Positions 1 to 49,872 of a stretch of DNA of 52,035 nt are shown here, piece after piece. The position numbers and the translations under genes are program-made. The notes beneath the pieces were generated by a model, which was not told where the DNA came from, ran no database searches, and saw only the letters and a list, made by a program, of their open reading frames with translations. Every line of letters starts with the position of its first letter. The stretch's first letter is position 1. The stretch comes from an uncultured Piscirickettsiaceae bacterium (GTDB taxonomy: Bacteria; Pseudomonadota; Gammaproteobacteria; GCF-002020875): the NCBI GenBank assembly GCA_964416755.1, contig CAYQFH010000002.1:1-52035 (forward strand), written 5' to 3'.

Positions 1-1604
1 TGATTACGCGGCAGATAGACTTCATTAATCCCTTTCTCCACATTCACATCAATCACCACTCCTTGCCGATCGCGCTGGGGCTCCAAAAGCGCCACCACAT
101 CCTGCAAGAAGGCACGTGGCGCAAAGCGGCTCATCTGGAAAATCGGTTTTGCATTACTGCGCTGCAAGCGAATGATCTCGGAGATATCCTGAATCCCCCC
201 CTCAACCCGGCTCAGCGGCTCGTCCATCTCCTTTTTCATCAAGCGCCCAACCACCTCATGTGTTCGCGAGATCACCTCTCTCTGGGTCTCGGGAGGAATT
301 TCATCTCCACGTTCCACAAGCTTTTCCAGTACATTGATTGCATCACTGAGAGCTTCTCTACTGCGCTTGACCTTGTAGACCTGCCCGGTGATACCTGCCA
401 ACACATTCCCAATGTTGTGCATGATACTGATCGACATCTCGGCAATACCTGACTGAAATGCAACCATCTGCTCTTTCTCTTCGAGTTCACGCTGTTTGGT
501 AATATCCCTCACCAACATCAAGTGATATCCCTCTTCAGCATGGATCACCAATGGCGTAGAGGAGAGCTGCAAAGAAAGCTGGTTCTCTCTCCGGTCAGAA
601 AACAGCAGTGTCTCTGTCAGGTGCATCTCACCATGTAGGAGCTGAACAACCTGATCTCTGACCGTTTCCGGAAAGAGTGCAGCAAAATCGGGGGAGTCTG
701 TATCCTCTTCAAGCTGGGAGAAGAGTCGTGCAGCCGCCGGATTATAGACCCGTATATCCCCTGTGCTATCCACAACAAACAATCCATCCCCCATATGCTC
801 CATGACTGAGGTGAGTTGCTCATTGCTCTGTTTCAGGTCTCGGGTACGCTCCGTCACTTTCTCTTCCAGGGATGCCAACAACACCTCAAGCTCACCACGC
901 AACTGCATCTCTGCCGCCATACTTTTCTGCAACACTTCCACCCCTTCGCAGAGATGAATCAACTCCTTGGAGGCAAACTCTTGTGGAACAACGGAAATAT
1001 TCCCCCCTGACTCGACGCCACGCAGGTACCGATCCACACGATGAATTGGTTTTACAACCAGTTGTCGCACCATCACGAACAGCATCAATGCCAGAAACAG
1101 AACCGCTCCACCCATCAGGTAGACAAACTGCCGCACCTGCAGTTCAAGCGCATCAAGCTGCTGCTGCAGATCCCAACGCAGAGCCACTATCCCGAAACGT
1201 TCCCCCTCAAAGATGATGGGGCGCTGTGTGGTCATCACCCCTCCCTCCATTAGGGAGGGGCTCTCCTCTCCTTCTGCACAGTGAGGGGCATCTTTGCCCC
1301 AAGTGAGCAGCGGTTGGTTTTGATAGTTGCAGAACTCCGCCCCCACCAGATTGGGGTGAATCTCGATCAATCCCTGCAGTGTTGTCTCCAGAATGGGGAT
1401 ATCTTCACTGAGTAGCGCATCCAGCAGTGTTGTCGAAAACAGTGCAGCCCGCTTATCGACCTCCACCTCTATCTGCTCCAACTGAAGTGTATGCGCAACC
1501 CGCAAGAGCACACTGCCGCCCAGCCAGAGCAGCAGCAGACTGACTCCCAGCATCACCCAGAAAGTCTGGACACCAATCGACCAGCTTTTGGGAGAAAACA
1601 ACAT
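1..1604 (-). CDS. Sensor histidine kinase (TM - HAMP-like - PAS - HisKA/HATPase), 3' end cut by the window edge
   Basis: Absent from the ORF track because it runs off the left edge. My minus-strand translation from ATG 1604-1602 reads MLFSPKSWSIGVQTFWVMLGVSLLLLWLGG (TM), then a second TM followed by VVKPIHRVDRYL (HAMP-like), MGDGLFVVDSTGDIRVYNPAAARLF (PAS) and EMSISIMHNIGNVLAGITG (H-box region). It stays open to base 1. The start lies 15 nt after the stop of the upstream binding-protein gene. Confidence 0.8.
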   Translation of the reverse strand, partial: MLFSPKSWSIGVQTFWVMLGVSLLLLWLGGSVLLRVAHTLQLEQIEVEVDKRAALFSTTLLDALLSEDIPILETTLQGLIEIHPNLVGAEFCNYQNQPLLTWGKDAPHCAEGEESPSLMEGGVMTTQRPIIFEGERFGIVALRWDLQQQLDALELQVRQFVYLMGGAVLFLALMLFVMVRQLVVKPIHRVDRYLRGVESGGNISVVPQEFASKELIHLCEGVEVLQKSMAAEMQLRGELEVLLASLEEKVTERTRDLKQSNEQLTSVMEHMGDGLFVVDSTGDIRVYNPAAARLFSQLEEDTDSPDFAALFPETVRDQVVQLLHGEMHLTETLLFSDRRENQLSLQLSSTPLVIHAEEGYHLMLVRDITKQRELEEKEQMVAFQSGIAEMSISIMHNIGNVLAGITGQVYKVKRSREALSDAINVLEKLVERGDEIPPETQREVISRTHEVVGRLMKKEMDEPLSRVEGGIQDISEIIRLQRSNAKPIFQMSRFAPRAFLQDVVALLEPQRDRQGVVIDVNVEKGINEVYLPRN

Positions 1605-1618
1605 TCGAGTACCAGAAA

Positions 1619-2470
1619 CTATTGGTCGAAAAAGGCTCCGCTATGGTGGATTGCCTTGCGTACGGTGTCATAGGCTGCATCATCTCCAGCGACAAAACCA
1701 TCCTTCTTCAATACTTTCAGCGCCGCCTTGTCATCAAATGCAAGCAAGGTATCCACCAGCGCCTGCTGCTGCACGGAGGGAAGATCTGCACGTCCGGCCC
1801 AGGCCTTGGTCGCCAGTTTGAACTCTTTCAACACGCGGATCTTTCTACCCTTTTTAACCAATTTTTTGAAGGTGCTGGATTTCAATGCACCCGCATCAAA
1901 ATCCCCTTTGGCTACTGCCTCACCAACCCGGTCATGGCGCCCCAAATACTCATACTTCTGCAAGTCTCTCTCGTTGACCCCCGCCTCAGCCAACAACAGT
2001 TGTGCAAAATAGCGACCTATCGTCGATTTTTCACTGCCAAAGGCAAAACGTTTCCCTTTCAGTTCTGCCATCGAAGTGATGGGGCTCTCCTGATGGGCAA
2101 TGATGTAACCACTGCGCATCTTCTTCCCCTTTTTACTCTCCATCGCCAGTAGTGTAACTGCGGGATTCTTCTCTTTGGTCAATACATAGGAGGCAGGTCC
2201 AAAACGGGCAAAGTCAACCTCCCCTGTCGCCAGTTTATTGATGGCCTGCTCATACGTCGGCGAGATTCGAGTATGAATCTTGACCGCCTCTCCCAGCTGT
2301 TGGCTCAAGCGCTGCTCCAGCTGACTCAATAGCGGGCGAAACTGAGTCACTACGGCCGATGCCTTGTCTGACGCATAGAGACCAAAGTTGAGGGTAACCT
2401 CAGCATGCACTGCCCCCCCCTGCAGCATCAACCCCGTCACTGCCGGAGCGATCCACCGTTTAAAATTCAT
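1619..2470 (-). CDS. Periplasmic PhnD/phosphonate-type substrate-binding-like protein, probably sensor-associated
   Basis: 283-aa ORF with an ATG preceded by a GGGAGG SD and the signal peptide MNFKRWIAPAVTGLMLQGGAVHA. Overall resemblance to PhnD-family periplasmic binding proteins. It sits between a receiver gene and a kinase gene. Confidence 0.7.
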   Translation of the reverse strand: MNFKRWIAPAVTGLMLQGGAVHAEVTLNFGLYASDKASAVVTQFRPLLSQLEQRLSQQLGEAVKIHTRISPTYEQAINKLATGEVDFARFGPASYVLTKEKNPAVTLLAMESKKGKKMRSGYIIAHQESPITSMAELKGKRFAFGSEKSTIGRYFAQLLLAEAGVNERDLQKYEYLGRHDRVGEAVAKGDFDAGALKSSTFKKLVKKGRKIRVLKEFKLATKAWAGRADLPSVQQQALVDTLLAFDDKAALKVLKKDGFVAGDDAAYDTVRKAIHHSGAFFDQ

Positions 2471-2526
2471 TATCTCAACCTCCCTTGGGTCTCAAAAAAT
2501 TACACTAAACAGATTCAGATACAACG

Positions 2527-3075
2527 CTAGCCTGCTCTGTCCTTCAATACCCGACTCTCAGCTTCTCTCTCCTGCTCTCTTTGTCGATAGAGTGAAAAAA
2601 GTTCCGCAATCTGGGAGAGCTCTTCAGGAACAAATGGCTTTTTCAAATAGACAAAGTCCATGCCCAGTGCTTCACGAAGCTCGGCTGTGGAATAGTCTGC
2701 ATAGGCAGTGGCAATCACCAGATAGACTGATGGGTCGATTGCCCTGAGTCTGACTCCACACTCTACCCCTGTCATTCCCGGAGGCATTCGCACATCCAGG
2801 AACACGGTGGAAATGGGCTCATCCGCGTCAAACGCCTCACGGAAACAGTCGATCGCCTCTTCTGCAGAGCTTGCCTTGACGATCTTGAATGGTTGGCTGG
2901 GCTGAGTACCGTCACTACCCTCATCCCGATCTTCCGAGAGCAATTGCATCAATGCTGTTGTCTCGATCTGGTGTGTAGATCCCGCCAGGATCTCTTCGTA
3001 GGCGTTCAACACACCTTCGTCATCATCAACCACCATGATTTTTCGGCTAGACAGACTCAAGATTTTTCCATGCAC
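2527..3075 (-). CDS. Stand-alone CheY-like receiver protein (no output domain) with a ~30-aa acidic insertion
   Basis: Receiver motifs VVDDDE, FLDVRMPPGMTG (phospho-Asp), IATAYAD and LKKPF. The start is ambiguous (GTG 3075, TTG 3060 or ATG 3036). Confidence 0.8.
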   Translation of the reverse strand: MHGKILSLSSRKIMVVDDDEGVLNAYEEILAGSTHQIETTALMQLLSEDRDEGSDGTQPSQPFKIVKASSAEEAIDCFREAFDADEPISTVFLDVRMPPGMTGVECGVRLRAIDPSVYLVIATAYADYSTAELREALGMDFVYLKKPFVPEELSQIAELFSLYRQREQEREAESRVLKDRAG

Positions 3076-3129
3076 ACTTAAATTTCAATCAGAACTGTTC
3101 GCAAGCTAAATTTCCACCCTGTCGCAAGG

Positions 3130-3852
3130 TCAACGAATCTTGTGACAAGCGACACAAGGCCCCCGGTCATTATGTGGCATATCCCCGTTCTGTACCTGCT
3201 GTTGGGTAATATCGGGCGGAGGCAGAATAATCAGATCCGGATCCGGCATGGTAAAGCTGCCATCACCAATGGTATGGCAGTCGGTACAGGGGCCACGATA
3301 GGCATGAGGTCGCGGATCTCCCGGCAGGATCATCGGAGCACCCTCGGCCTGAGCAAAACCGAGCTCTAGGCGGGCACGGATGATATAGACCATGCGATGC
3401 ATCACATAACGACCATTACTATCCTTCTCCTCCCCCTTGCGCATCACAGTAACCGCTGCATGGCGCAGATTTTTCACCTGACGACTGGCCTCGACAAAAC
3501 TCTCCAGATCGGTAACCGGCATATCCTTGATTGCGACAATAATATCGCCGCCCAGCATACCGCTCAACGCTGCATTGAGTGTCACTTCATTGATGATCAC
3601 CCCCTGCATGCCACGCGGATAGCCCAGCTGTTGACGCAGTTCGGCAGTCAGTTTCATCACGTCCATCCCCTGCCAGTGCGCTTCATAAAGCTTCATCCTG
3701 GAGGGAATGAAATTGCCGCTGCCGGGTGCAGCCAGATTGTAGACCGGATCGTTGGGTTGCTGCAGCGATGCTGAACCCGTGACCGCACCAGCCAGTGACA
3801 CAGAAGCCAGTGAAAGTGCAGCACCCATCAGCAGAGGTTGAAGTTTCACCAT
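3130..3852 (-). CDS. mamP: MamP-like protein: N-terminal hydrophobic segment, PDZ domain, two magnetochrome-type c-haem motifs
   Basis: Hydrophobic N-terminus MVKLQPLLMGAALSLASVSLAGA and a PDZ-like core GVIINEVTLNAALSGMLGGDIIVAIKDMPVTDLESF. Two copies of PH-x(2,3)-RGPC-x2-CH follow: RPHAYRGPCTDCH (CTDCH codons 3274-3288) and MPHNDRGPCVACH (CVACH codons 3142-3156). The ORF-track start at 3879 is a TTG; the ATG at 3852 lies 4 nt after the mamO-like stop. Confidence 0.75.
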   Translation of the reverse strand: MVKLQPLLMGAALSLASVSLAGAVTGSASLQQPNDPVYNLAAPGSGNFIPSRMKLYEAHWQGMDVMKLTAELRQQLGYPRGMQGVIINEVTLNAALSGMLGGDIIVAIKDMPVTDLESFVEASRQVKNLRHAAVTVMRKGEEKDSNGRYVMHRMVYIIRARLELGFAQAEGAPMILPGDPRPHAYRGPCTDCHTIGDGSFTMPDPDLIILPPPDITQQQVQNGDMPHNDRGPCVACHKIR

Positions 3853-3856
3853 AATC

Positions 3857-5860
3857 TTACTGCAATAACAGGAGTGCAAACGCGATCACCAGCATGATCC
3901 CGATAAAGGTCCAGCGCTGCTGGGTCACTGTGGTCCGCTCCTGGAAGTAGTAACCGAGGAAACCACCACCATAGGTGCTGGGCACCAGAATCATGGCCAG
4001 CGTGAGCGGAGTCTGCCACTCAAAGGAGCCAATGGAGACACCATAACCCAGAGAGACCAGTGTTGCAGTCAGAGAGGCCCAGAAGACCATCACAATGGCA
4101 TTGGCTCGTGCATTCTCGGCAGAAAGCCCCGCATATTTGCGCTGGAAGTACTGCTCCACTACGCCACCACTCACCCCCAACAGACCGGTCAAAATGCCAA
4201 GAGGGCCACCCATGATGGGGGAAGTTGCCCAACCGCGCCGTACGTCGACCTCTTCCGAGTCAAGCAGGAAATTATCGATACGCTCCTCTTGATTCCTGGC
4301 CACCGGGCGCACATGGGATTCACGCTCTTGCAGATCTCCGCGCAACTCAAAATAGACCACCAGCGCCATTGCCAGCGCAAAGAGACCGAGTAAATAGCCG
4401 ATCACATGATCATAGAGATTATGTCCGAGGAAGTAGCCCAATACCGCACCCACGATGGTAGCCGGTAACAGCTCCTTGATACGGCGGGTAATGATCACCC
4501 CGGCAAACAGCTGGCGCAGGGCGGCAATACCGTAGGTGAAGAGGTTGGTGATGTAGATTACCGGACGCACCATGAAGACACCGTAACCAAACACCAACAT
4601 CATTCCGGCCACGGCGACAATGCCCCCTCCCATTGGTACCAGTGTACCCACTGCACCCGCAAAGACTCCCAACAATACCAGCCCGACAATGGCATCCAGC
4701 TTATAGAAGCCGAGATCAAAGCTGGAGTCATGCTCCAGATCCATCAAGCTGACCGAGTCCCCCGGTGCTCCGATATGCGCTACCCGCTGTTGCCCTTCTG
4801 CGGGCTCTGCGGTCACTGCAGCAACATTCTGAGCCAGTAGTGCTCCGGGATTGTTCTGATTCTGCTGATCCTGAATTGCAGCCAACTTCTCCTGACGGGT
4901 CTGCTGACGGGCCTGATCCCACCATGCAGCGGCCATCCCCTTGGCTGTACCCGACTGCATCGCACTATTTCCATTTGGAGTAATGGTTCCATTTTCAGCT
5001 GGCGCAACCGGTTTGGCAATCTTCTTCAACCCTTTGGAGGTCAGATCCACCACATCCTGAAAATGGGCACGAATCACGTGGGCAGGGACTACAAAACCTT
5101 CCGCCATCCCGCCTTGTCCCTGCAACAACAGACCGATCCCAACCAACTCTGCCTGCTGGTTGATTACCGCGCCACCGCCCTGCTCCCAACGCACCATCGC
5201 ATTGGTCTGCATCAGATGGGTTATCGGGTTGCCTGCAACCTGGCGTACCTGATCATTCAACTGCAAGATTCCAGGGTTGGCAACCACAGCCCCTTGCACA
5301 TCCTTGCCGATCGCAATCAACTGACTCTGCAGCGGAGCATTGCGGCTGTCTGCCAATTTCAGGTAGAGAAAACGATCATTGGTAACCATCTTCAGCAACA
5401 CCAGATCATGCGCTGGATGCTTCTTTACCACCTCGGTCTTGTAGAGACGAATACCGCTGCCACCCGCCACCTGAATCTGCAACTGATCCGGGTTATTTAC
5501 ACTGTGCAAAGTGGTAATGACATAACCATCCGGGTGCACTAAAACACCTGAAGAAACAACACCAGCACCTTGATTTACAATGGAAACAACCGCTGACCCA
5601 GCTGGAGTAACCAGATCAGTCTGTCCACCGGCAATATTCAAGCCACCCGCAAGACCACTCTGCGGTGTAGTATCCGAGGAGAACGATGAGAAGAAGTTGC
5701 TGACCGCATAGGATTCAACCTCATACTCTTCCAGATCAACATCATAGAGGTAGAGCGCCCAACCAAATAGCATCAGTGCTGCCAATGGCAACAGTGCCAG
5801 CGGGATCTGCCACGGCCTTTTACAGAAGACGATTTTGTTATCTAATCCTGCGAGTTTCAT
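3857..5860 (-). CDS. mamO: MamO-like fusion: TM anchor, degenerate trypsin/HtrA-like domain, C-terminal TauE/SafE-type transporter domain
   Basis: 667 aa. The protease-like region keeps His (YVITTLHSV) and Asp (HPAHDLVLLKM), but the GNSGG nucleophile box reads EQGGGAV (Ser replaced by Gly). The C-terminal ~270 aa are multi-TM with TauE-like glycine-rich helices (PMGGGIVAVAGMMLVFGYG, GILTGLLGVSGG). Confidence 0.75.
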   Translation of the reverse strand: MKLAGLDNKIVFCKRPWQIPLALLPLAALMLFGWALYLYDVDLEEYEVESYAVSNFFSSFSSDTTPQSGLAGGLNIAGGQTDLVTPAGSAVVSIVNQGAGVVSSGVLVHPDGYVITTLHSVNNPDQLQIQVAGGSGIRLYKTEVVKKHPAHDLVLLKMVTNDRFLYLKLADSRNAPLQSQLIAIGKDVQGAVVANPGILQLNDQVRQVAGNPITHLMQTNAMVRWEQGGGAVINQQAELVGIGLLLQGQGGMAEGFVVPAHVIRAHFQDVVDLTSKGLKKIAKPVAPAENGTITPNGNSAMQSGTAKGMAAAWWDQARQQTRQEKLAAIQDQQNQNNPGALLAQNVAAVTAEPAEGQQRVAHIGAPGDSVSLMDLEHDSSFDLGFYKLDAIVGLVLLGVFAGAVGTLVPMGGGIVAVAGMMLVFGYGVFMVRPVIYITNLFTYGIAALRQLFAGVIITRRIKELLPATIVGAVLGYFLGHNLYDHVIGYLLGLFALAMALVVYFELRGDLQERESHVRPVARNQEERIDNFLLDSEEVDVRRGWATSPIMGGPLGILTGLLGVSGGVVEQYFQRKYAGLSAENARANAIVMVFWASLTATLVSLGYGVSIGSFEWQTPLTLAMILVPSTYGGGFLGYYFQERTTVTQQRWTFIGIMLVIAFALLLLQ

Positions 5861-5890
5861 CTACTACACCATGATTTACGCTATCACCAA

Positions 5891-5933
5891 GAACAGACAA
5901 AGCCCCTGCAAGGTTGTACTCCTCAGCAGGGGC
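5891..5933 (-). terminator. GC-rich hairpin plus T-rich tail between the mamC-like and mamO-like genes (possible partial terminator/attenuator)
   Basis: The minus strand reads GCCCCTGC-(16 nt)-GCAGGGGC followed by TTTGTCTGTTCTT. The 8-bp perfect stem is at 5902-5909 / 5926-5933. Confidence 0.35.
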
Positions 5934-5959
5934 AGAGCGACTAAAACGACAACCGAATA

Positions 5960-6325
5960 TTAAGACTCAACGCCTTCAGCAAGAATTTCGTCCGCCTCAT
6001 CATTGTCACGCATGCGCAGCTCCAGCTGCTCCATGCCACGATCATAGGCATACTTGGCACCGGTTGCAGCAACCAGCGCAGTCCCCAGAGAGACCGCCAA
6101 ACCACCACCTACCGCACCAGCGGCCACTGCACTGAAAGCCGTTGCCAGCCCAGCACCCAGCCCCTCTTTACCAGTGTCATAGATTGCATCCTTGGTCTCT
6201 ACCAGACCATCACGGTGATCCTTGATATTCCTGGCCGCTGCACCAGAAGCACCAACCACCGCACCGAGCACACCCACACCGGAGGCGCTCTGTGCCAGAT
6301 ATTGCGCCAAATTAAATGCTGCCAT
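5960..6325 (-). CDS. mamC: MamC (Mms13/Mam12)-like small two-helix magnetosome membrane protein homologue
   Basis: 121 aa, with an ATG preceded by a GAGGGAGAA SD. It aligns by eye over nearly its full length with MamC as I remember it: [16 protein letters not shown], then [40 protein letters not shown], then an acidic tail. Confidence 0.75.
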   Translation of the reverse strand: [121 protein letters not shown]

Positions 6326-6361
6326 CTTCGTTCTCCCTCAATCTTCCAACAAGGATATATT

Positions 6362-6390
6362 GTTATAAATACTTCGACTTCCGTACACAA
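6362..6390 (-). promoter_or_regulatory. Candidate sigma-70 promoter upstream of the mamC-like gene
   Basis: Minus strand TTGTGT-(17 nt)-TATAAC. The -10 is at 6362-6367 and the -35 at 6385-6390 in plus-strand coordinates. The -35 is weak. Confidence 0.25.
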
Positions 6391-6451
6391 TCGAAAGTCT
6401 GAAGATCGATTAAACCATGTCCAAATGGAGTTGGCAAATCAATCTGTTTGC

Positions 6452-7048
6452 TCAGAAAAGCATCAGGTCATCTGCATTACGGTTACCGTACGCTTTGGCC
6501 TCCTGAATGGCCTCCTCTTTGGTCGCGCCACGCAGCAGCGCATCAAACAGCACCTTGCCCTCTTCCATGGTGAAAGAGCTGTAAACCTGATTTTGTAGCT
6601 CTTTCCACTCATTCGGGTTGAACAAGCGCTGCTGATCATTCACCAGATCGGCAGTGTTCTCCAGACTGCCTGCGATGTGGTTTAGCTGTTGGGTCAGACG
6701 ATCATAGAACTGAAAGCTGATGACTGCACTTTTCAGATCGCTGATCACCAGATCACACTTGTTATCGAGCCGATCCAGCATCTCCTGATACTGAGTACCA
6801 CAGCTCTCAGGCACTTCACCATCCACATCGCGCGCTGTCTGCTTGATTTCCTGCATATAGCGATTCATATTGGTGAAGGCCTCGATCAACGAAGTGATCG
6901 ACTCATCACCGGTAGACATGGAGTATTCGATGGCTGAGACTCCGACACGAAACATTCGTACCGTCTCTCGAACTTGACTCCAATCGAGGTCTGGCTTCTC
7001 AGCGGATGACGGAACGGATCGCAACTCACTCATGAATAATGCACTCAA
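6452..7048 (-). CDS. Soluble hypothetical protein with a CheZ-like F-Q-x-x-D-R-L-T-Q-Q helix motif
   Basis: 198-aa ORF (TTG 7048; first ATG at 7033) with no TM segment. The ISFQFYDRLTQQLNHI segment is reminiscent of the CheZ DFQDLTGQ active-site helix. The function is not established. Confidence 0.5.
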   Translation of the reverse strand: MSALFMSELRSVPSSAEKPDLDWSQVRETVRMFRVGVSAIEYSMSTGDESITSLIEAFTNMNRYMQEIKQTARDVDGEVPESCGTQYQEMLDRLDNKCDLVISDLKSAVISFQFYDRLTQQLNHIAGSLENTADLVNDQQRLFNPNEWKELQNQVYSSFTMEEGKVLFDALLRGATKEEAIQEAKAYGNRNADDLMLF

Positions 7049-7105
7049 AGAAAAACAATTAAGAATCTTCTTATTCTATCACGCCCGTTTTTCACTGCAC
7101 AGCGG

Positions 7106-7519
7106 TTATCGACGTCCAAACAGCCGGGAAAGCATTCTGAATGGGTGGCGAATCGCATAGGTTGTACTCTTCTTCTTCAGCAGTTTGAACTCCACCGCAG
7201 TCAACATATAGATGATCTCGCGGCTCAGGGCCTTTACCTCCAACAGCGCCTCGTTGGCCTCCTCTTTTCGACCGTGCTTATGGGAGCGAATCACCCGCCT
7301 CACCGCTTGGTGAAACTGTTTATGGTCACGCTCCAACTGCTGAATCTCGACATTGTTGCCAAACTCCCGCAATCCCTCCTCATAGAGCCATACCCCCAGC
7401 GGACAGTCCTCATGGGAGTCCACCTCAAGATGCTGCAGATGGTGTGTATCCAGCAACTCCTCCAGCTGCAGTTCCCAGGAGAGATGCACCAACCGCATAT
7501 AACCCAAATCAGAAATCAT
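7106..7519 (-). CDS. Stand-alone CZB (chemoreceptor zinc-binding) domain protein
   Basis: It matches the remembered CZB pattern exactly. HLSW (H-x2-W) is followed by 23 aa, then CPLGVW (C-x-L-G-x-W), then 21 aa, then HKQFH (H-x3-H). Its ATG overlaps the stop of the upstream ATPase-like gene (ATGA at 7516-7519). Confidence 0.85.
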   Translation of the reverse strand: MISDLGYMRLVHLSWELQLEELLDTHHLQHLEVDSHEDCPLGVWLYEEGLREFGNNVEIQQLERDHKQFHQAVRRVIRSHKHGRKEEANEALLEVKALSREIIYMLTAVEFKLLKKKSTTYAIRHPFRMLSRLFGRR

Positions 7520-8556
7520 GAAAGTCCCTTTCTCTTGAATAAAACCATGGAACGAATCTCCAGACGGTAACGCAATTCGCCACTGATCCTCCCCTCAAGA
7601 TGGCTGGAGAAGCTACGCTCAATCACCAGATCTGGAGTCAACTGCAAACAATAGATGGTCTTCCCTCCCTGGGCACTGCTCTGCAGAATGCGTGCACGCC
7701 GCCTCGACTTCTCATCAAATACGATATCTTCCGGCCGGATCAGCAGTTCAAGACGTGTTCCGTCCGGCAACCCGAAACCGGTGGGATGGTCAATCATGCC
7801 GAGCTCTGTATCGAGGCGCAGTTCATCATGCACTACCCCCTTGACCAGCACACCCGCTCCCATATAACGGGCCACACTCCGCTTCTGTGGTGTCGCATAC
7901 AGCTCCTGCGGTGCGCCCCACTGCAGCAGAATTTCGTTCTCCATCACACCGGCAAAATCACCCGCAAAAAGTGCGCCTTGCCGCACTGCCGTGGAAAGCA
8001 AAATACCGCAACCAAAATGTTCCACGATCCCCTCCAGACGATCCAGCAGGCGATAACGTGCCTCCACGCCAAGATCGAGCAGCGGCTCCTCCAGCAGCAG
8101 CAATACCGGACGGGTTACCAGTGCACGGGCAATCAACAGATAGCGTCTGGTCTCTTCATCCAGGACATCGGGGTAGCTGGCAGCATAATCCGCCAACTTC
8201 AACCCGGAAAGCACCTTCATACAGTGCTCACGCTTGTTGGAAATCCTGAAGTTCTGCAACACCAGACGCAGATTATCCAAAATAGTAAGATGTGGGTAGA
8301 AGCTTCCATCTCTCGGCACCCAGGCAATGGGGCGCTCCCAAGGGGGGGGAATTTTGCCACTCCGTGCAATCAGATCCCCACGCAGAAAGATCTCCCCCTC
8401 TTCAAACCCTTTCAATCCGGCGATCAGGCGGAGCAGTTCCCCTTTACCACTCTCCTCCTCCCCTAGAAGCAGACCGAGCTTACGCTCGGGAAGCGCCAGA
8501 GAAACTCTGGCACCGGTTGGCATTTGCAGTTGATGCAGCTTGAGTAGGTCAGCCAT
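7516..8556 (-). CDS. FbpC/PotA-family ABC ATPase-like protein with degenerate catalytic motifs and a C-terminal TOBE-like domain
   Basis: Collinear with ABC importer ATPases, but each motif is altered. Walker A is GEEESGKG (not GxxGxGKS/T), the signature is LDEETRRY (not LSGGQ), Walker B is LLLLEEP (not hhhhDEP), and the H-loop His is absent (LLSTAVRQ). The C-terminal LLIRPEDIVF block resembles FbpC. The ATG at 8556 overlaps the permease stop by 8 nt; the ORF-track GTG start is at 8580. Confidence 0.8.
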   Translation of the reverse strand: MADLLKLHQLQMPTGARVSLALPERKLGLLLGEEESGKGELLRLIAGLKGFEEGEIFLRGDLIARSGKIPPPWERPIAWVPRDGSFYPHLTILDNLRLVLQNFRISNKREHCMKVLSGLKLADYAASYPDVLDEETRRYLLIARALVTRPVLLLLEEPLLDLGVEARYRLLDRLEGIVEHFGCGILLSTAVRQGALFAGDFAGVMENEILLQWGAPQELYATPQKRSVARYMGAGVLVKGVVHDELRLDTELGMIDHPTGFGLPDGTRLELLIRPEDIVFDEKSRRRARILQSSAQGGKTIYCLQLTPDLVIERSFSSHLEGRISGELRYRLEIRSMVLFKRKGLS

Positions 8557-9295
8557 AGATAAAGGGCCCAAGTGCAACACCCAATGGCGTATAGAGCAGT
8601 GAAATCATCATCACCAGCAGCGTCCCTCGTGTCTTCATCGACACACGCCCTGCGCTTATCTGTTCAGGCAAAACCCGTGGCAATCTCCTGTAACTGCCCA
8701 GCAAGAGTGTCAGCGAAAGAGAGAGCAGCAGAACCCACTGCAGCAGCAACAATGGCTCTGGCTGTTCCAGAAGATAGAGCACCACCGGCAATGTCTCCAC
8801 CCCCAGCCGCTCAGCCACCCCGAAATCAAAATTGACCACCAACAGGGAGGCACCAAACACCCAAACCATCAACCGCAATAGCAGTGGTCGAACCACCATC
8901 GCCGGAGCCACACGATCAACCAACCCCAATTGGTAGCGCTGTTCACGCCCTACAGCCGCTGTGACTGCAAACAGTTTGACTGCAAACAGGGTTGAGAGGG
9001 CCACAGTTGAGAAAAGCAGCACAAAGAGGAGCGCAATACGCCCTTGGAAGAGTTCAATCCAGTGCAGCGGTACCCCTTCTGCAACCAATCTGGCCGGGGT
9101 AAGCAGCGCACTGAACACCGCCCCCCAGGCGATCCAGCGCATCAGCGTGCTGATTCTGCGGGTCACCAACATCCAGCCAATCCACCCTGAAAGCGGAAAT
9201 ACCAGGAGAGAGAGCGCCGCAGTTAATAACAGAGACTCCAGCAGCGGGGCAACGGCTGGAGGAAATTCAAGAAGCGGAAAATAGGACAGACTCAT
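8549..9295 (-). CDS. Multi-TM ABC permease-like membrane protein (divergent)
   Basis: 248 aa with about 6 hydrophobic segments and a weak EAA-loop-like stretch, FGVAERLGVETLPVV. Translationally coupled to the ATPase-like gene. Confidence 0.55.
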   Translation of the reverse strand: MSLSYFPLLEFPPAVAPLLESLLLTAALSLLVFPLSGWIGWMLVTRRISTLMRWIAWGAVFSALLTPARLVAEGVPLHWIELFQGRIALLFVLLFSTVALSTLFAVKLFAVTAAVGREQRYQLGLVDRVAPAMVVRPLLLRLMVWVFGASLLVVNFDFGVAERLGVETLPVVLYLLEQPEPLLLLQWVLLLSLSLTLLLGSYRRLPRVLPEQISAGRVSMKTRGTLLVMMISLLYTPLGVALGPFIYG

Positions 9296-9325
9296 CCGCC
9301 CTATTCTACCGCATCCATCTGGTGC

Positions 9326-9520
9326 TTAAAGTGAGTAGTTGTCTCTCAATCCCAATTTATTGCGATATGCCTCAGACTGATAGTGATCTCTTCGCTGACA
9401 ACAGAGGTTCCACAATCGAGAAACCTTGTAGAGAGAGAAAGAGAGCACCCCACTGAGAACTACTTTGGCGACAACCAGTACAGAAATTCCGAGAGAGGCA
9501 GCAATCAACATCATGATCAT
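9326..9520 (-). CDS. Small (64-aa) membrane protein, first gene after the Fur-box promoter
   Basis: The ATG at 9520 has an AAGGAG SD 7 nt upstream. The sequence is MIMMLIAASLGISVLVVAKVVLSGVLSFSLY followed by a basic/Cys tail. The longer ORF-track start at 9628 would overlap fur. Confidence 0.5.
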   Translation of the reverse strand: MIMMLIAASLGISVLVVAKVVLSGVLSFSLYKVSRLWNLCCQRRDHYQSEAYRNKLGLRDNYSL

Positions 9521-9557
9521 TATGGTACTCCTTACCTTGTTTGAACCAGTAAGGAGC

Positions 9558-9585
9558 ATTATATGCAAATGATAACGATTATCAA
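9558..9585 (-). promoter_or_regulatory. Sigma-70-type promoter with an embedded Fur box
   Basis: The minus strand reads TTGATA-(16 nt)-TATAAT. The 19-mer at 9565-9583, gcaaatgataacgattatc, matches the Fur consensus GATAATGATAATCATTATC at 15/19. The core palindrome TGATAAC-G-ATTATCA (9570-9584) lies across the -35/spacer. Confidence 0.7.
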
Positions 9586-9593
9586 TAGATATT

Positions 9594-10028
9594 TTACTCT
9601 TTTTTCTGGCAACTTCCGCAGACACCATAGAGCGTCAATGCATGGTCAGAGATCTGGAAAGAGTAATTGTCAGCAATTTCATGCTGCAGCTTCTCTATCT
9701 TGGCCTCAAAGAACTCCTCCACTGCACCACAGCTGGTACAGAGCAAATGGTCATGATGATCTCCACGATCCAACTCGAACACCGAGTGGCCGGTCTCGAA
9801 ATTGTGCCGCTTGAGTATTCCAGCCTGCTCGAACTGGGTCAATACGCGATAGACAGTGGCCAGTCCGATCTCCTCCTCTTTTTCGATGAGCGTACGGTAG
9901 ACCTCTTCTGCACTGAGGTGAATCTGTTCGCTCTCCTCCAGTAGCGCCAAAATACGCATACGGGGATGCGTTACCTTCAGGCCAGCACTCTTCAGTTGCT
10001 CTTTTTCAGATAGCGATTGATCAATCAT
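9594..10028 (-). CDS. fur: Ferric uptake regulator Fur
   Basis: 144 aa with LKVTHPRMRIL, ATVYRVLTQFEQAGI, the HHDHLLC-x2-CG motif and a C-terminal CGSC. A full-length Fur-family match. Confidence 0.95.
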   Translation of the reverse strand: MIDQSLSEKEQLKSAGLKVTHPRMRILALLEESEQIHLSAEEVYRTLIEKEEEIGLATVYRVLTQFEQAGILKRHNFETGHSVFELDRGDHHDHLLCTSCGAVEEFFEAKIEKLQHEIADNYSFQISDHALTLYGVCGSCQKKE

Positions 10029-10037
10029 CCCCCCCCC
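10029..10037 (-). repeat. Homopolymer G9 (minus strand) between the SD and the ATG of fur
   Basis: The plus strand has 9 consecutive C at 10029-10037. The minus strand reads AGGAAGGGGGGGGGATG. Confidence 0.9.
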
Positions 10038-10080
10038 TTCCTATTTTCATTCATGGTATCTATACAAAACAGAACAACTG

Positions 10081-11283
10081 TCAGAAGCGGATCGCTGTAC
10101 TGACCGGCTGCTCACCCTGTCTGATTTGTTGCTTTATGTCATCAATTTTATGTTGAAGCTGCAGTGTAGCATGCTTGACGATCTGATTGACCTCTGCCGA
10201 AGTGGTCACTGCATGTAATTTACTATTCAGCGCCTCCAACTGGCGACCATTGCTCTTTCTCACTTCACCAATCTCATAGCGCAACTCTTCCACAATACTC
10301 TTTTCACGACCATCCCCTCGCTGCAGTACCCCCTCATCCGCAGTCACCGGTATCCGTTGCTGGGAGAGCTGCTCCAACTGTTCAGCAAGCTGCTGCTGCG
10401 TCTGCTCAACAACTGCAAGTTGCTGCCTTAGCGGTTCCAGCAACGGTCGTAATTGCAACTCGGCAGGCACTTGCATGGAATCTATCTCATCTGTTGCTCC
10501 ACTGCCCTCAATCTGCTGCTGCATCTTCTGCATCAGGGCTGACTGTTCCGCAATCTGTCTGCTCTGCTCCAGAACCAACTGTTGAGTCTGCTTCAGTGCT
10601 CCCTGCAGTTGCTGCATTAATTGCGCCTGTTCAGCCTGCTGCTGTCTCGAATCATCAACAGCCTGTCTTGACTGTGCCAGCTCTTCATTCAACTGAGAAA
10701 AGCGTTGCTCGACCCCCCTGGAGATTTCGGCAGATTGCCGGGGTGCCACAGGTTGCTGTTGCCGGTTCAGTTCATTCAACTGCTGTTGCAGCTGAGCGAC
10801 TCTGTCCTCCATCTCCCGCAATTGCAGAGATTGAACCTCAGTCGAGTCACTTCCTCCCCCCTGTTCCAACTGATCCATACGCTTACCGATCCGGATCTGC
10901 TCCCGGCGGCTATTGGCCACCAGCTTGCCAATCTCACCCCGCATTTCATCCAGCGTAGAGGGAACCCCATCAATACGCTCTTTTAGCAACGCGACTTCAG
11001 ACTCCAACTGTTTTACCTCATGCTCAGAGAGGCTGGGAACGGGAACCACAACGGGTCGGGGCACTTCGCTCATCTCCTCAAGCGGCTGCTTAATCAGAAA
11101 TTCGGAAGTGACCGGCTCAATCACCGGTTCAGGCACACTATCCCCCTGCTGTATCAGCTGACCCAACGCATCGCCCTTAAAACAGCGATCCTCCCCAGGA
11201 CGATAGATGGCTTCTCCCAAATGGTCACCACTCACCTTAATACGGTCAAGCACCTGATTGCTAATCGATGAATCTACTTTCAT
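10081..11283 (-). CDS. Gln/Glu-rich coiled-coil protein of unknown function
   Basis: About 400 aa of heptad-like Q/E/L-rich sequence (LQQQLNELNRQQQ, QQQAEQAQLMQQLQG) after a ~60-aa N-terminal globular segment. The ATG at 11283 is preferred over the ORF-track GTG at 11373. Confidence 0.6.
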   Translation of the reverse strand: MKVDSSISNQVLDRIKVSGDHLGEAIYRPGEDRCFKGDALGQLIQQGDSVPEPVIEPVTSEFLIKQPLEEMSEVPRPVVVPVPSLSEHEVKQLESEVALLKERIDGVPSTLDEMRGEIGKLVANSRREQIRIGKRMDQLEQGGGSDSTEVQSLQLREMEDRVAQLQQQLNELNRQQQPVAPRQSAEISRGVEQRFSQLNEELAQSRQAVDDSRQQQAEQAQLMQQLQGALKQTQQLVLEQSRQIAEQSALMQKMQQQIEGSGATDEIDSMQVPAELQLRPLLEPLRQQLAVVEQTQQQLAEQLEQLSQQRIPVTADEGVLQRGDGREKSIVEELRYEIGEVRKSNGRQLEALNSKLHAVTTSAEVNQIVKHATLQLQHKIDDIKQQIRQGEQPVSTAIRF

Positions 11284-11433
11284 GACGTCCAGTATAAAAG
11301 GAGCCCTCTGACAGCACAACAGAACAACTGGATAAGGAAACGCCTGTTTTGCAAACTGTCTCTTCAGATCCACAGCATATGGACGCTAAATTCAGAGAAC
11401 CAACAGAAGAAAAACATCAATGGGACAAAACCA

Positions 11434-11628
11434 ATGAAACAGACAAAGAATTCTTCCCTCTCTCAAAAACACGAGATTCACTGGAATGCTGTTGGTGCTG
11501 GACTGGTCACTGCTGCCTTTATCTACCCTGAACAGCAGACCATTCTACTCTCCATGGGTGGCTCCAGCTTTATAACGGGAGTTATTCAGAAGCTGAGCAA
11601 GCGGAGACAACAGTCTGCCATTCAGTAA
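11434..11628 (+). CDS. Possible small hypothetical protein
   Basis: 64-aa ORF ending 40 nt before a strong terminator. The SD is weak and no family was recognised. Confidence 0.3.
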   Translation: MKQTKNSSLSQKHEIHWNAVGAGLVTAAFIYPEQQTILLSMGGSSFITGVIQKLSKRRQQSAIQ

Positions 11629-11667
11629 CCACACTACACCATGCAATAAACAGTAATTACTGCGTTC

Positions 11668-11706
11668 AAAAAAGCCCCCGGCTACACTGTAACCGGGGGC
11701 TTTTTT
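11668..11706. terminator. Bidirectional rho-independent terminator
   Basis: AAAAAA-GCCCCCGG-(11 nt)-CCGGGGGC-TTTTTT lying between convergent genes. Confidence 0.8.
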
Positions 11707-11740
11707 CAGCTGAGCCAATCGAGAACCGAGTACTCACAGC

Positions 11741-12019
11741 CTACCCAAACTCGTGCTCCTCATCAAAGATCTCATCGTGATGAGCACCTGCATGGCTGAC
11801 ACGATAAACCAGATAGATCAGATAAGGGGCTGCAACCAGAAGAATGACTCCAACATTCAGATTACCGGGAATCAGGCCATCATAGAAGCGGTCCAGATTG
11901 ATCCAGCCGGTCACAATCGACACGCCAATCGGGATCACAAACAGGCCAATCGAGAACCACACCAGAAAACGCAACCACTCCGTCCCTAACCACTCCGCAC
12001 AACAGATCACTCTATTCAT
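11741..12019 (-). CDS. Small two-TM membrane protein with an acidic/His-rich C-terminal tail
   Basis: The ATG at 12019 is preceded by AAGGTGAG. There are two hydrophobic helices, and the tail reads HAGAHHDEIFDEEHEFG. Confidence 0.55.
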   Translation of the reverse strand: MNRVICCAEWLGTEWLRFLVWFSIGLFVIPIGVSIVTGWINLDRFYDGLIPGNLNVGVILLVAAPYLIYLVYRVSHAGAHHDEIFDEEHEFG

Positions 12020-12257
12020 CACACTCACCTTAATCCGAAAAACGCTTTATCTATAACAACAAACTTACATAAATAATAATCTATAAGATTTGTTACTGAA
12101 ACCAATACAACAAATGTGCCAAGTGAAACGACAGTTTCTTGTCACTGGCGATATAACATTGAATTTCATGGAGTAAGCGAAAAACATTTCACAATCGAAA
12201 TATTACCAATATGTTATATTTGGCGTTTTATTCAGCCGATCACAACCGCTGCCTACT

Positions 12258-15200
12258 ATGCTTCTCCAGCCGCTGGCACTTTTTCGAAAATTGAAATTGA
12301 TCCACAGGATTCTGATCCTCCAGATCCTGTTGCTGGTTCCGTTTGTCCAACTGCTGCTCCACCACAATCAATCAGTCAGTGCGCTGCAATCCGAGAACAG
12401 ACTCTTCTCTCAAGGGGTGGAAAAAGTGCGGCAGCTTTCTCTGTTGCAAGAGCATATTGCACAATATCGCGGCCTTCACCATGGAGAGCAACAACGATCA
12501 CGCCCTGCCCGTTCCGAGACAACCGAACTACTGAAAGAGCTTCACCAGAACATTGACAGCGAAATTGCATCATTGAGTGACGCTACACTCCCCACACTCA
12601 ATCCGCATCTGATTGAGATCATCCAGACGCAGTGGCAGGCACTTGCCCACTCCTCCAACTCACATAAAGCCGACCATTTCAGCGGCTATACGAGACTGAT
12701 CAGTCAGGTTCACCACCTGATCAAACAGGTCTCCACAGTTAGCTCCCCAAAACTCAATCCCGAGCACCCGGAACTCCTCAAGATATACTCTCTCTCGACC
12801 CACACCATTGCAGCACTCAAGGAGCAGATGGGACAACTGCGAGGCATCACTTACGGAGCCCTTCAATCTGGACAGGATTTGACCAGCAATCAGCAGTTCC
12901 AGGTGCTGTTACCTATTACACTGTCTAAAATCGCAACCTACCGGGCTCTGGTTCGGGATCAACTCGTTGGCATTTACCAGTATAGCCCTGAACTCTACAG
13001 AGAGAGCTTTTCACTCTTTTCCGACTACTCCATCGAGTTGGCAGCACTCTTTGAACTGCTCAATTGGGAACTTGAAAACACTAGCGACGACTCTTCCTCG
13101 CTGCAACTATTCCAATCACCAGATGCCTTTTTCCAGCAGGTCAGTTTTCAGATCGAGCTGCTCGACCAGCTTATCCAGAATCTCTTTGCCCACATTGAGC
13201 AGCATCTGGCAGAAGAGCAGCAACAACTTATCCTCGAACATAACCGGCACCTGCTTTTACTGGTTCTGATACTGATTACAGCACTCCTCTCGCTCGTCTG
13301 GGTGCTCTACGACAACAATCGGGGAAATCTACAGTTACGCAGCTATCTACAACAAAAAGACCCCCTGCAACTGAACAACATGGAGACAGGTGACCACCTT
13401 TCCAATCTCGACCATGAACACTTGCAGATTTGGCAAGCCTACCACCATCTCGAGCAACATCTGGAACATGAAACCGCCCGACTACTCACACTGAAACAAG
13501 GTGTGGACCGTGCAGCAATGATCATGATTACCGACTTGGAGGGGGCCATTCTCTATGTCAACGAGTCCCTGATTGATCGAACCGGATACAGCGAAGCAGA
13601 ATTGTTGGGCAGTAAACCCAGCATATTGAAGTCAGGAGAGACATCCAGAGAGACCTACCAACGCCTCTGGAAGAGCATTCTTGCCGGCAAGATATGGAAA
13701 AACCAGCTCGCCAACCGAAGTCGTTCCGGCGAGCTATACTGGGTTGAGGAGACCATCGTCCCGCTACTGGATGACAATGATGAAGTCCAGGAGTTCTTCG
13801 CCATCCATGTCGAAATCACGACACAGATGATTGCGGAACAGCGCCTTGAGGGGGAGGTTAAAGAGCTGAAGGCGCTGCAGTCCGTTACTACAGAACATCA
13901 AAACCAGCAGTTGGATAGCGATTTCACAGTGACCTCACAGATGGAAGAGGACAATTCCCTCCTTCCGGTAGAGCCACAGAACGAACCCATCCGTGTGCTT
14001 GCCGTAGACGATGAGAAGGCCATTCTCGATAGCTACCGCGTACTACTGAGAGAGGATGACAGCGAAGCAGTGGATCAACTGGGCTCCTTGCTTGAGGGCT
14101 CTTCCATCACGTCCGAATATACTCCCCCCTTTATTCTGGAGTGTACAACCAGTGGTGAAATAGCCGTTGAGAAGCTGCGTTCTGCAATGAACCGTGGGAA
14201 GCCCTATCAGGTAGTCTATCTGGACATGTTGATGCCTGGCGGCTGGGATGGGCTCAAAACAGCAAAAGAGATTCTGCGCATCGACCCCATGGTGAGAATC
14301 ATCGTCATCAGTGCCTGGAGTGATCATAAACCTGCAGAGCTCAAACCTGTACTCGGAGAGCACTTCATCTATCTGAAAAAACCATTCAGCCGTGAAGAGT
14401 TGATCCAGCTTACCCACTATATGGCCGAGGATTGGCGCCGCACACAACAGCTGACACAAAGCAAGGAGTCACTCTCCCAGATCATGCTGGATCTTACAGA
14501 GAGTAACAGGCAGCGTCAGCACGAACTGGATAGCCAGCGAATTTATCAGATGATTCTGGTCACACTCTCGACCAGTGCACCACTCTTTTCCGGTGATCGC
14601 CAATCCGGATACAACGAGATCACACAAGCGACACTGGAGGCGCTGGGTGTAGACCGTGTCACACTATGGCGCCTGGAGGAGGAAGAGGGTGAACAGATAC
14701 TCATTGCCGACGACTGTTATAACGTGAAAGAGCAGCAACATCACTCTGGTGCCAGACAATACACAAGAGATTATCAGGAATTCTGGAACCAGATTGAGCA
14801 CCGGCAAGTTGTTCGCATCGATGACACAGCCCCCCTGCTCGAAAGCCTTTCTCAACCATCCAACTACTTCAATGAACACGATATTCAGTCGCTGATGATC
14901 TCTCCGATCTTCTATAACAACGAACAGACCGGTGTAATCACCGCTGAGGTGCAGACAGAATCGCGCGTCTGGAAACTGGAAGAAGCGACTTTCCTCTCCT
15001 ATGTCAGCAACCTCGTTCCAACCATTGAAATCTCAGCGGCACGCAAAGATGCAGAGACTCGTGCAGAAAATGCCAACAAGGCCAAGGATGATTTCCTGGC
15101 AACAATGAGCCACGAGCTCCGCACCCCGCTCTCCAGCATGATCGGCTATGGAGACATCCTCAGCGAAAGCCCATTGAACCATGACCAGCAAGATCTGGTG

Positions 15201-16517: not shown

Positions 16518-16586
16518 ATCGCGGATAGTCGATAAAATAGACCACACACTATTGTTACCAAACGTAACACTAGATACACTCTGCCA

Positions 16587-27446: not shown

Positions 27447-27454
27447 CACCAGAT

Positions 27455-27859: not shown

Positions 27860-27861
27860 TG

Positions 27862-28260: not shown

Positions 28261-28266
28261 AATGGT

Positions 28267-28896: not shown

Positions 28897-28905
28897 GAGA
28901 ACATC

Positions 28906-47824: not shown

Positions 47825-47904
47825 GCGAAGATACTGTCTCTCTGTCGAACTCCCCATTGGTTGGCCTACCAATTTTTTGATACGGATCGAAAATCTGCTG
47901 TACG

Positions 47905-49851: not shown

Positions 49852-49872
49852 AAAATTCTCCTCAATCCAGCC

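Follow-up and report, generated by a model that had tools for sequence, protein, structure and literature searches.

A conserved fur-mamC-mamO-mamP array from an uncultured gammaproteobacterial clade as the probable second part of a split magnetosome gene cluster

Magnetosome formation requires large iron fluxes, and the gene clusters that have been studied come from a few Alphaproteobacteria. A magnetosome gene cluster is recognised by a core of mamA, B, M, K, I, Q, E, O and P occurring together in one genome. In the canonical mamAB-type clusters, such as those of Magnetospirillum, Magnetovibrio MV-1, LM-1 and metagenome-assembled genomes (MAGs) like X1_MaxBin.010, mamK-M-N-O-P-A-Q-R-B-S-T form one operon. 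Among Gammaproteobacteria, six MAGs with mam genes have been reported (Uzun et al., 2020, PMC7449369). Here, we describe a contig of 52,035 bp from an uncultured Piscirickettsiaceae bacterium (CAYQFH010000002.1, assembly GCA_964416755.1), the whole of which is referred to as the window. Open reading frame (ORF) calls and translations show 13 minus-strand genes that fill it from position 11283 down to 1. These encode a coiled-coil protein (CC400), Fur, a small single-transmembrane (TM) protein, the membrane protein TM248, an ATP-binding cassette (ABC)-like pseudo-ATPase, a stand-alone CZB protein, the helical protein p193, MamC, MamO (here MamO2), MamP, a receiver (REC), a solute-binding protein and a sensor histidine kinase (Table 1). 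As in the canonical clusters, mamP directly follows mamO; in contrast to them, mamC-mamO2-mamP is detached from mamM and mamA and is preceded by fur, the pseudo-ABC set, the CZB gene and p193. We consider it likely that this array is part B of a split magnetosome gene cluster in an uncultured marine gammaproteobacterial clade, the mamAB-type remainder of which is referred to as part A.

The protein identities were based on NCBIfam and Pfam profile cut-offs and on PDB alignments, by which the genes described as mam-like in a first-pass annotation of the DNA sequence are genuine mamC, mamO and mamP, orthologous to those of the canonical clusters in domains and key residues. MamC passes the NCBIfam equivalog NF038051 (130.3 bits, cut-off 100), its orthologs carry PF26373, and it is the most conserved gene of the array, with 83-94% identity across lineages and a proportion of nonsynonymous differences (pN) of 0.04-0.10. 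MamP combines a PDZ domain (Pfam PDZ_2) with two magnetochrome CXXCH haem motifs, CTDCH and CVACH (two Pfam MCR matches), aligns over its whole length with the MamP structure 4JJ0 (E 2e-47) with both PCxxCH motifs in register, and is 50-57% identical to MamP of cultured magnetotactic bacteria, while its NCBIfam score of 299.6 bits lies marginally below the cut-off of 300. These features predict an Fe(II) oxidase, in line with the role in Fe(II) oxidation through magnetochromes given for MamP (PMC11648623).

In MamO2, a Trypsin_2 domain is fused to a TauE domain (Pfam), and the protease domain matches that of the MamO structures 5HMA/5HM9 (E 1e-41). Its residues H151 and H266 align with H148 and H263 of MamO from strain AMB-1, which bind metal and are essential for nucleation, H119 and D152 align with H116 and D149, which matter for crystal maturation, and Gly228 takes the position of the nucleophile T225, which is dispensable in AMB-1 (Hershey et al., 2016, PMC4794232). 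By its NCBIfam score (532 bits, cut-off 800), MamO2 is a divergent member of the family; with the trypsin-like and TauE domains and the di-His site present and the nucleophile lost, it is predicted to be a metal-binding pseudoprotease.

Of the core set, the window holds only mamO and mamP, with mamC in addition. The first-pass annotation had proposed an iron-responsive module for iron redox chemistry or biomineralisation, distinct from canonical magnetosome clusters. In its strict form, a self-contained module that works apart from magnetosomes in a bacterium lacking a canonical mamAB cluster, this idea is favoured by the absence of further mam genes from the 52-kb contig, by the solitary position of the array in most lineages, between regulatory genes and proS-ilvBNC, and by the array having a sensor of its own in Fur, a possible membrane complex and, in the window, a two-component system; it appears quite improbable in view of the relatives. 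In the closest relative with a long contig (CCWXVF010000015.1 / ERZ930061, our loci L067/L068), the array is the 3' continuation of mamQ-R-B-S-T-(239 aa)-mmsF-mamH-I-E-(377 aa)-mamK on the same strand. The MamK encoded there is a true MamK, with its best matches outside the clade in BW-2, SHHR-1 and Magnetovirga frankeli (56-59%). In the abundant HON68-type lineage, the mamK part is followed by ndk-rlmN-rodZ-ispG-hisS and hence is separate from the array; however, the locus tags HON68_09765 (MamK) and HON68_09415 (p193) share a prefix, and the mamK part and the p193 of the array therefore come from one MAG. The number of MamK lineages (P0032-P0037) equals that of MamO2 lineages, and MamC is a magnetosome-membrane protein that is not known to act outside magnetosomes.

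A scan of metagenomes with the clade's MamB yielded the upstream end of part A, mamM-mamO1-mamA-mamQ-mamR-mamB-mamS-mamT (L074-L076). Unlike canonical operons, this one lacks mamP between mamO1 and mamA, and the slot between mamM and mamA is filled by a second MamO without the di-His pair; MamO1 is 36-39% identical to MamO2 of the window and has no His at the second metal-ligand column. Since part A lacks mamP and a di-His MamO, the window supplies functions that the canonical part lacks, which fits complementation rather than independence; together with the contiguity in one relative and the common MAG in the HON68 lineage, this speaks against the view of a system distinct from canonical clusters. 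The genome of the window would be expected to carry part A as well and to make magnetosomes. MamO paralogs in the mamM-mamO-mamA position without His at the column of AMB-1 H263 were seen at L074 6052-7905, L075 2954-4807, L072 4425-6317 (minus strand) and L073 9324-11201; in L072 and L073 the mamA-side MamO also lacks His at the H148 column. In these gammaproteobacterial clusters, the mamP-side paralog keeps both. On a metagenome contig of the same clade (MOXF01; L082 5193-10857), mamM, mamO and mamB each appear in two tblastn pieces, for which frameshifts or assembly errors are possible explanations.

On CCWXVF010000015.1, the stretch from mamK to the array encodes small proteins, a rubredoxin, a REC protein and two acidic coiled-coil proteins. 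The interval from mamK to the array, or to the end of part A, retains in this clade a TM protein with a basic tail, the rubredoxin, a CheY-like REC protein and a pair of acidic, Q-rich coiled-coil proteins in divergent orientation (L001 693-4071 / L067 11107-14485; L069 11517-14987). Only Rubredoxin and REC were matched by Pfam among these genes, which are possible clade-specific factors of the magnetosome chain or of redox reactions.

At least six lineages, with MamO identities of 69-88%, share the order CC400/fur/small TM/TM248/ABC-like/CZB/p193/mamC/mamO/mamP; the REC, solute-binding protein and kinase genes lie outside it. The lineages comprise MAGs labelled Piscirickettsiaceae or Gammaproteobacteria and the HON68-type lineage, which is found in more than 260 blocks of the collection. 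Absence of the gene order from all related genomes was part of what the first-pass annotation would have taken as refutation; the order is conserved. Synonymous sites are saturated between lineages, with a proportion of synonymous differences (pS) of 0.6-0.75, as opposed to a pN of 0.04-0.25 for the conserved unit and of about 0.09-0.22 for CZB, p193, Fur, MamO and MamP, and every gene of the array is under purifying selection. The array is thus a conserved, selected unit that joins a canonical Fur, a Fur-box promoter and real MamC, MamO and MamP. The alternative that it is what is left of a degenerating magnetosome cluster after its lineage lost magnetotaxis could draw on the lost catalytic motifs of the ABC-like ATPase and on the mere three mam genes of the contig; it is very improbable, as the ORFs are intact in every lineage, MamC, MamO and MamP show a pN of 0.04-0.19 against saturated pS, and the CXXCH motifs, the di-His site, the CZB zinc ligands, the promoters and a hairpin are conserved, as is the ABC degeneracy itself, which is ancient.

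The Fur of the array is of the canonical type (NCBIfam PRK09462, 182.7 bits, cut-off 146), 75-82% identical in the relatives and always found at the same position. The promoter behind fur, already recognised in the first-pass annotation, is the sole match to 11 of 12 promoter positions within 1-12300, and its -35 hexamer and spacer are covered by the Fur box TGATAATcGTTATCA at 9570-9584, which matches 14 of the 15 positions of the 7-1-7 Fur consensus. No other site of equal quality is present in the 52 kb, the chance expectation being 1.55 sites at up to 3 mismatches. The classical 19-nt Fur consensus gave no site with up to 3 mismatches allowed, while the 7-1-7 form did match. The 28-nt block of promoter and Fur box is near-invariant in six lineages, whereas its flanks cannot be aligned. 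Fur regulation is predicted, given that the Fur is canonical and that a 7-1-7 box overlaps the promoter. A further Fur-box-like site with 2 mismatches (49347-49361) lies inside a TonB-dependent receptor gene of the window and not in a promoter. In several alphaproteobacterial magnetosome loci, namely LM-1, WMHbin7, nKLKbin1, ELA004 and Magnetospirillum SS-4, a Fur-family gene 35-44% identical to the Fur of the window sits on the opposite strand, a few kilobases downstream from mamO (L018 16703-17071, L021 16623-16991, L032 16636-17004, L037 17774-18127 and L061 13343-13699, all minus strand).

Two further promoters are conserved. The -35 and extended -10 blocks of the promoter before mamC are kept in five lineages, the rest of the spacer being variable, and the extended -10 element before p193 is kept as cgTGaTAGAAT in five of six lineages within an otherwise divergent spacer; a weak candidate at 6362-6390, proposed in the first-pass annotation, is not conserved. 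Between mamC and mamO2 lies the window's sole CCCCTG...CAGGGG site, a hairpin with a minimum free energy of -22.2 kcal/mol (z -2.8) followed by a U-rich tract, in which 3 of the 12 pairs show compensatory changes across five lineages. A single operon was considered for the array and dropped because of the three conserved promoters and the conserved hairpin inside it; these elements indicate several transcription units, which stand as predictions. The arrangement of the mamC promoter and the hairpin predicts high expression of MamC and attenuated expression of mamO2-mamP.

The genes behind the Fur box resemble an FbpABC-type Fe(III) importer, in that the ABC-like protein has its best PDB match in FbpC (3FVQ, E 2e-28) and a TOBE-like domain, is translationally coupled to an upstream membrane protein and stands behind a promoter overlain by a Fur box. 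Unlike in FbpABC, however, substitutions affect the Walker A Thr, the Q-loop Gln, the LSGGQ signature, the Walker B Asp and the H-loop His alike (Walker A GEEESGKG, Q to R, signature LDEET, Walker B LLLEEP, H to A), the conserved core contains no solute-binding protein, and the membrane partner has no detectable permease homology. The degeneracy is identical in kind in all lineages, including the distant loci L072 and L044 introduced below, so that the earlier description of a dead ABC system was right: the fold is homologous, but the motifs that an active importer ATPase of the FbpC/PotA/MalK type would have, among them a Walker A of GxxGxGK[ST] and a Walker B of hhhhDE, are degenerate. The gene has a pN of 0.18-0.29 at a pS of about 0.65-0.72, with the N-terminus and the TOBE-like C-terminal domain best conserved. 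Since the catalytic motifs are lost while the TOBE-like tail is conserved, a ligand-sensing or scaffolding subunit is more likely than a transporter motor.

TM248 has no Pfam or NCBIfam match, only 8 relatives, all restricted to the clade, among 1.84 billion representative proteins, and no significant BLASTP similarity to the BPD_transp_1 permease of L072; its former label as a permease thus finds no support in homology. G124 and VVRPL at 134-138 are invariant, and the likeness of its E-x5-G-x9-VVRP motif to an EAA loop is a hint of a permease at the level of the motif. The small TM protein is called with 59-64 aa in all relatives at 43-66% identity. CC400 is conserved at both ends and variable in the middle (35-45% identity among relatives).

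The CZB protein is a bona fide member of its family (Pfam 44.6 bits, cut-off 29.4), as had been assumed, and is 72-85% identical across lineages with a pN of about 0.1. By inspection of the sequence, H12, C39, H66 and H70 lie in an H...C.LG.W...H-x3-H pattern of three His and one Cys, the zinc-ligand pattern of CZB domains such as those of DgcZ and TlpD. In contrast to CZB chemoreceptors of the TlpD and DgcZ type, it has no MCP (methyl-accepting chemotaxis protein) or GGDEF output domain.

The CheZ of Escherichia coli carries a D-x3-Q motif on its second helix. p193, which had been called CheZ-like, is likewise predicted to be a long helical hairpin (AlphaFold, two long helices, predicted local distance difference test score 71) with an invariant QFYD-x3-Q, the D-x3-Q lying on the second helix. 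CheZ was rejected as an identity: the Pfam CheZ profile matches 0 of 42 family members, the PDB profile search returned no CheZ, and Foldseek with the AlphaFold model gave no CheZ match, the best E-value being 0.28. No Pfam or PDB match of any kind was obtained for p193, and what remains of the likeness is the motif on a helical hairpin. For p193, 218 homologs were counted, those of Methylophaga and Methylocucumis being 35-46% identical. In Methylocucumis oryzae, the gene of a chemoreceptor that ends in a CZB domain is immediately followed by a p193-family gene (L156 3896-5537, L157 1085-4538), and the CZB-p193 pairing therefore exists outside magnetosome clusters too. In a Methylophaga MAG, such a gene follows a pair of a PilS/PilR-like kinase and a sigma-54 activator (L154 2026-5531).

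Four more distant loci served for comparison: L072 (ERZ23498458), L073 (GCA_036937345.1), L044 (nS315bin38) and L041 (a Sedimenticola MAG). All four have, like the window, a separate mamC-(mamN)-mamO2-mamP block, with MamO2 only 41-43% identical to that of the window, and L072 and L073 also have two MamO paralogs. A CZB gene adjoins the block in L072 and L073, fur in L072 only, and a degenerate FbpC-like ATPase in L072 and L044, the latter sharing the MAD[LF]LK N-terminus and the TOBE-like tail with the protein of the window. L072 further contains a BPD_transp_1 permease, a ferric reductase, FMN_bind and PepSY/FeoA, and L073 a ferric reductase and FeoAB, in arrangements that differ from that of the window. 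Unlike the window, none of the four has TM248, the small TM protein, p193 or CC400. Because the distant L072, L073 and L044 also pair the block with CZB, fur or FbpC-like genes, the linkage of mamC-mamO2-mamP to genes for iron handling and sensing is older than the clade of the window, whose version is a streamlined derivative.

These comparisons also bear on the explanation that the array is a neighbourhood without joint function, in which a housekeeping fur, the leftover of a Fur-regulated Fbp-type importer, a chemotaxis-related p193 and mamC-O-P stand side by side and have stayed together for no other reason than the youth of the clade. The separate conserved promoter of each block, the canonical equivalog type of the Fur, the commonness of the p193 family, with its CZB pairing, in non-magnetotactic gammaproteobacteria, the lack of a Fur box at the equivalent place in L072 and the identity of at least 69% in MamO among all lineages with the exact order would fit such a neighbourhood. 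Yet the saturated pS indicates that rearrangements had long enough to occur, an 11-gene core is constant while the flanks and the cargo behind mamP vary, TM248 is found in this context only, and CZB (L072, L073), the FbpC-like protein (L072, L044) and fur (L072) lie beside mamC-mamO2-mamP in another arrangement at a MamO identity of about 41-43%. On balance, we regard a mere neighbourhood as unlikely, although it deserves more weight than the other two alternatives.

Several observations nevertheless weigh against reading the array as part B of a magnetosome cluster. Magnetosome formation has been seen in no member of the clade. When searched by tblastn with 17 Mam proteins from the Magnetospirillum UT-4 locus, the window yields MamO and MamP only, while the same queries retrieve the full mamK-M-N-O-P-A-Q-R-B-S-T series in dozens of other loci. 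A promoter repressed by Fur predicts induction at low iron, which is an unintuitive direction for biomineralisation. Finally, no Fur box was detected in the corresponding fur/permease spacer of the distant L072 cluster, and relatives of p193 are present in gammaproteobacteria that are not magnetotactic.

The layout of the array is given in Table 1. Of the junctions listed in the first-pass annotation, the ATGA overlap at 7516-7519 between the stop of the ABC-like gene and the start of the CZB gene is correct, as are the 8-nt overlap at 8549-8556, with the ABC-like start at ATG 8556 (MADLLK..., 346 aa, the start in all relatives), and the 4-nt gap at 3853-3856, with the MamP start at 3852 (240 aa, matching relatives). 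The gap at 1605-1618 measures 14 nt instead of 15, and the protein formerly given as 198 aa has 193 aa with its ATG at 7033. An independent assembly of the lineage of the window (L158) gives identical gene calls for the array, and the reported minus-strand run from 11283 to 1 holds with all named ORFs present.

Table 1. Positions of the genes and predicted cis-elements of the array and its upstream edge in the window.
Feature	Position	Strand	Evidence and remarks
CC400, Q/E-rich coiled coil	10081-11283	-	weak SMC-type coiled-coil matches only; always precedes fur
fur, canonical type	9594-10028	-	Pfam FUR E 2e-45; NCBIfam PRK09462
Fur-box promoter (predicted)	9558-9585	-	TTGATA-16-TATAAT; Fur box over -35 hexamer and spacer
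Small single-TM protein, 64 aa	9326-9520	-	AGGAG ribosome-binding site, ATG at 9520; first gene behind Fur-box promoter
TM248, about 6 TM segments	8549-9295	-	overlaps ABC-like gene by 8 nt
ABC-like pseudo-ATPase, FbpC-type homolog	7516-8556	-	Pfam ABC_tran; best PDB match 3FVQ
CZB protein, stand-alone	7106-7519	-	Pfam CZB 44.6 bits; ATGA overlap with ABC-like gene
Extended -10 before p193 (predicted)	7073-7081	-	TGATAGAAT; spacer alignment
p193, helical hairpin, 193 aa	6452-7033	-	invariant QFYD-x3-Q
Sigma-70-type promoter before mamC (predicted)	6409-6437	-	TTGCCA-17-(TG)TTTAAT
MamC, 121 aa	5960-6325	-	NCBIfam NF038051
GC-rich hairpin and U-rich tract between mamC and mamO2	5903-5932	-	predicted terminator or attenuator
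MamO2, trypsin-like and TauE/TSUP	3857-5860	-	Pfam Trypsin_2 and TauE; PDB 5HMA/5HM9
MamP, PDZ and two magnetochromes	3130-3852	-	Pfam MCR, PDZ_2; PDB 4JJ0
REC, stand-alone receiver	2527-3075	-	Pfam Response_reg E 9e-12; probable start ATG 3036 (169 aa)
PhnD-type solute-binding protein, periplasmic	1619-2470	-	Pfam Phosphonate-bd E 6e-52
Sensor histidine kinase, N-terminal 534 aa (TM, PAS, H-box)	1-1604	-	PAS match; cut by contig end
Small divergent ORF, 64 aa, one TM	11434-11628	+	tblastn 56-65% identity in relatives
TM95, 95-aa small membrane protein	11741-12028	-	68-74% identity in relatives; upstream edge of block

The receiver, solute-binding protein and kinase genes behind mamP, which the first-pass annotation had counted as a dedicated part of the module, occur only in the lineage of the window and in L005-L007. 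The REC protein (DD...D(FLDVRMP)...T...K) has orthologs of 49-51% identity in L005-L007 only, and the solute-binding protein one of 82% identity in L005/L006 only. The kinase ortholog of L005 is 57% identical and 655 aa long, contains HATPase_c and is followed by the convergent proS; the kinase is absent from L001, L009 and L010/L160. The interval between mamP and proS is empty in L010/L160 and holds a mamN-like ArsB/CitMHS gene in L001 and L009. The trio is therefore variable, lineage-specific cargo inserted between mamP and the convergent proS and does not belong to the core. The block always lies upstream of the convergent proS-MIF-ilvBNC with the exception of one variant of the abundant lineage (L162 14056-17187), in which surA-pdxA-ksgA follows mamP instead; the array has therefore moved, or its flank has been rearranged, at least once.

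At the other end, the conserved block extends past 11283 with a plus-strand and a minus-strand gene and is not strictly unidirectional there. The 64-aa ORF is kept in L005/6, L010/L160 and L011, always opposite to the array, and is called in L005, L158 and L160; TM95 occupies the same position in L005/6, L010/L160 and L011. Divergent from the array, a 1419-aa hybrid kinase (PAS-GAF-HisKA-HATPase-REC-REC-Hpt), a 975-aa kinase and a sigma-54 activator are encoded at 12258-21002 (plus strand). Within the hybrid kinase, a REC-like segment (13992-14414) shares 35% identity with the REC protein of the array, and the array of L158 is also flanked by this kinase. Iron-related loci are found on the minus strand at 26316-29334 and 44490-49881, namely ExbB-ExbD-ExbD-TonB, and a TonB-dependent receptor with a YfiR-like protein and a CHASE8 hybrid kinase. 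Scans of the window for tRNA and Rfam families gave no match and hence no signal of an integration site or riboswitch.

In the proposed split cluster, part B would supply, by homology, the clade's only MamP, the di-His MamO paralog with its TauE domain, and MamC, while part A (mamM-mamO1-mamA-Q-R-B-S-T...mmsF-mamH-I-E...mamK), located elsewhere in the genome or, in one lineage, immediately upstream, would provide membrane, iron-transport, protease and cytoskeleton functions. The array would be transcribed as four units: CC400-fur; small TM-TM248-pseudo-ABC-CZB from the Fur-box promoter; p193 from its own extended -10 promoter; and mamC from its strong conserved promoter, with the hairpin letting only part of the transcripts into mamO2-mamP. 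Fe(II)-Fur bound to the -35 hexamer and spacer of the 9585-9558 promoter would repress it under iron-replete conditions and release it at low iron, so that the small TM/TM248/pseudo-ATPase/CZB set would be made mainly at low iron. As these four genes are translationally coupled, their products probably form one membrane complex, which may act on biomineralisation, iron partitioning or behaviour. The protease domain of MamO2 would bind iron via H151/H266 and start the nucleation of magnetite, its TauE domain would transport a solute, MamP would oxidise Fe(II) through its magnetochromes, and MamC would modulate the crystal. A speculative extension, for which we would claim little confidence, is that the Fur-box promoter and the four proteins, including the pseudo-ATPase with a ligand-binding TOBE-like tail and a zinc/oxidant-sensing CZB protein, possibly with p193, form a dedicated iron/redox checkpoint within a magnetosome cluster that gates nucleation and Fe(II) oxidation by MamO2/MamP according to iron status. 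If true, a magnetosome cluster would for the first time be shown to encode an iron-sensing circuit in cis, and an ABC importer would have been repurposed as a sensor.

In the literature searched, we found no description of the split organisation, of the di-His difference between MamO1 and MamO2, of an embedded fur with a Fur box, or of the pseudo-ABC/CZB/TM248/p193 set, and searches covering Piscirickettsiaceae magnetosomes, Magnetovirga and gammaproteobacterial clusters from oxygen minimum zones, as well as Liu et al. (2022), gave no account of fur, ABC or CZB genes associated with mamC-O-P. The conserved Fur box inside part B of this clade and the split of the MamO paralogs are new, whereas the overall kind of system, a magnetosome gene cluster, is already known. 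For annotation, this means that a lone mamO, mamP and mamC on a contig do not indicate a new system, since the remaining cluster genes may be at another place in the genome. The tie between magnetosome genes and cellular iron sensing is poorly understood, and with a canonical fur and a strongly conserved Fur-box promoter beside mamC-mamO-mamP, the clade offers a directly testable regulatory link, for which the HON68-type lineage is a widely sampled target. The division into MamO1 and MamO2, only one of which has the metal-binding histidines, could help to separate the role of MamO in nucleation from its role in MamE activation or transport.

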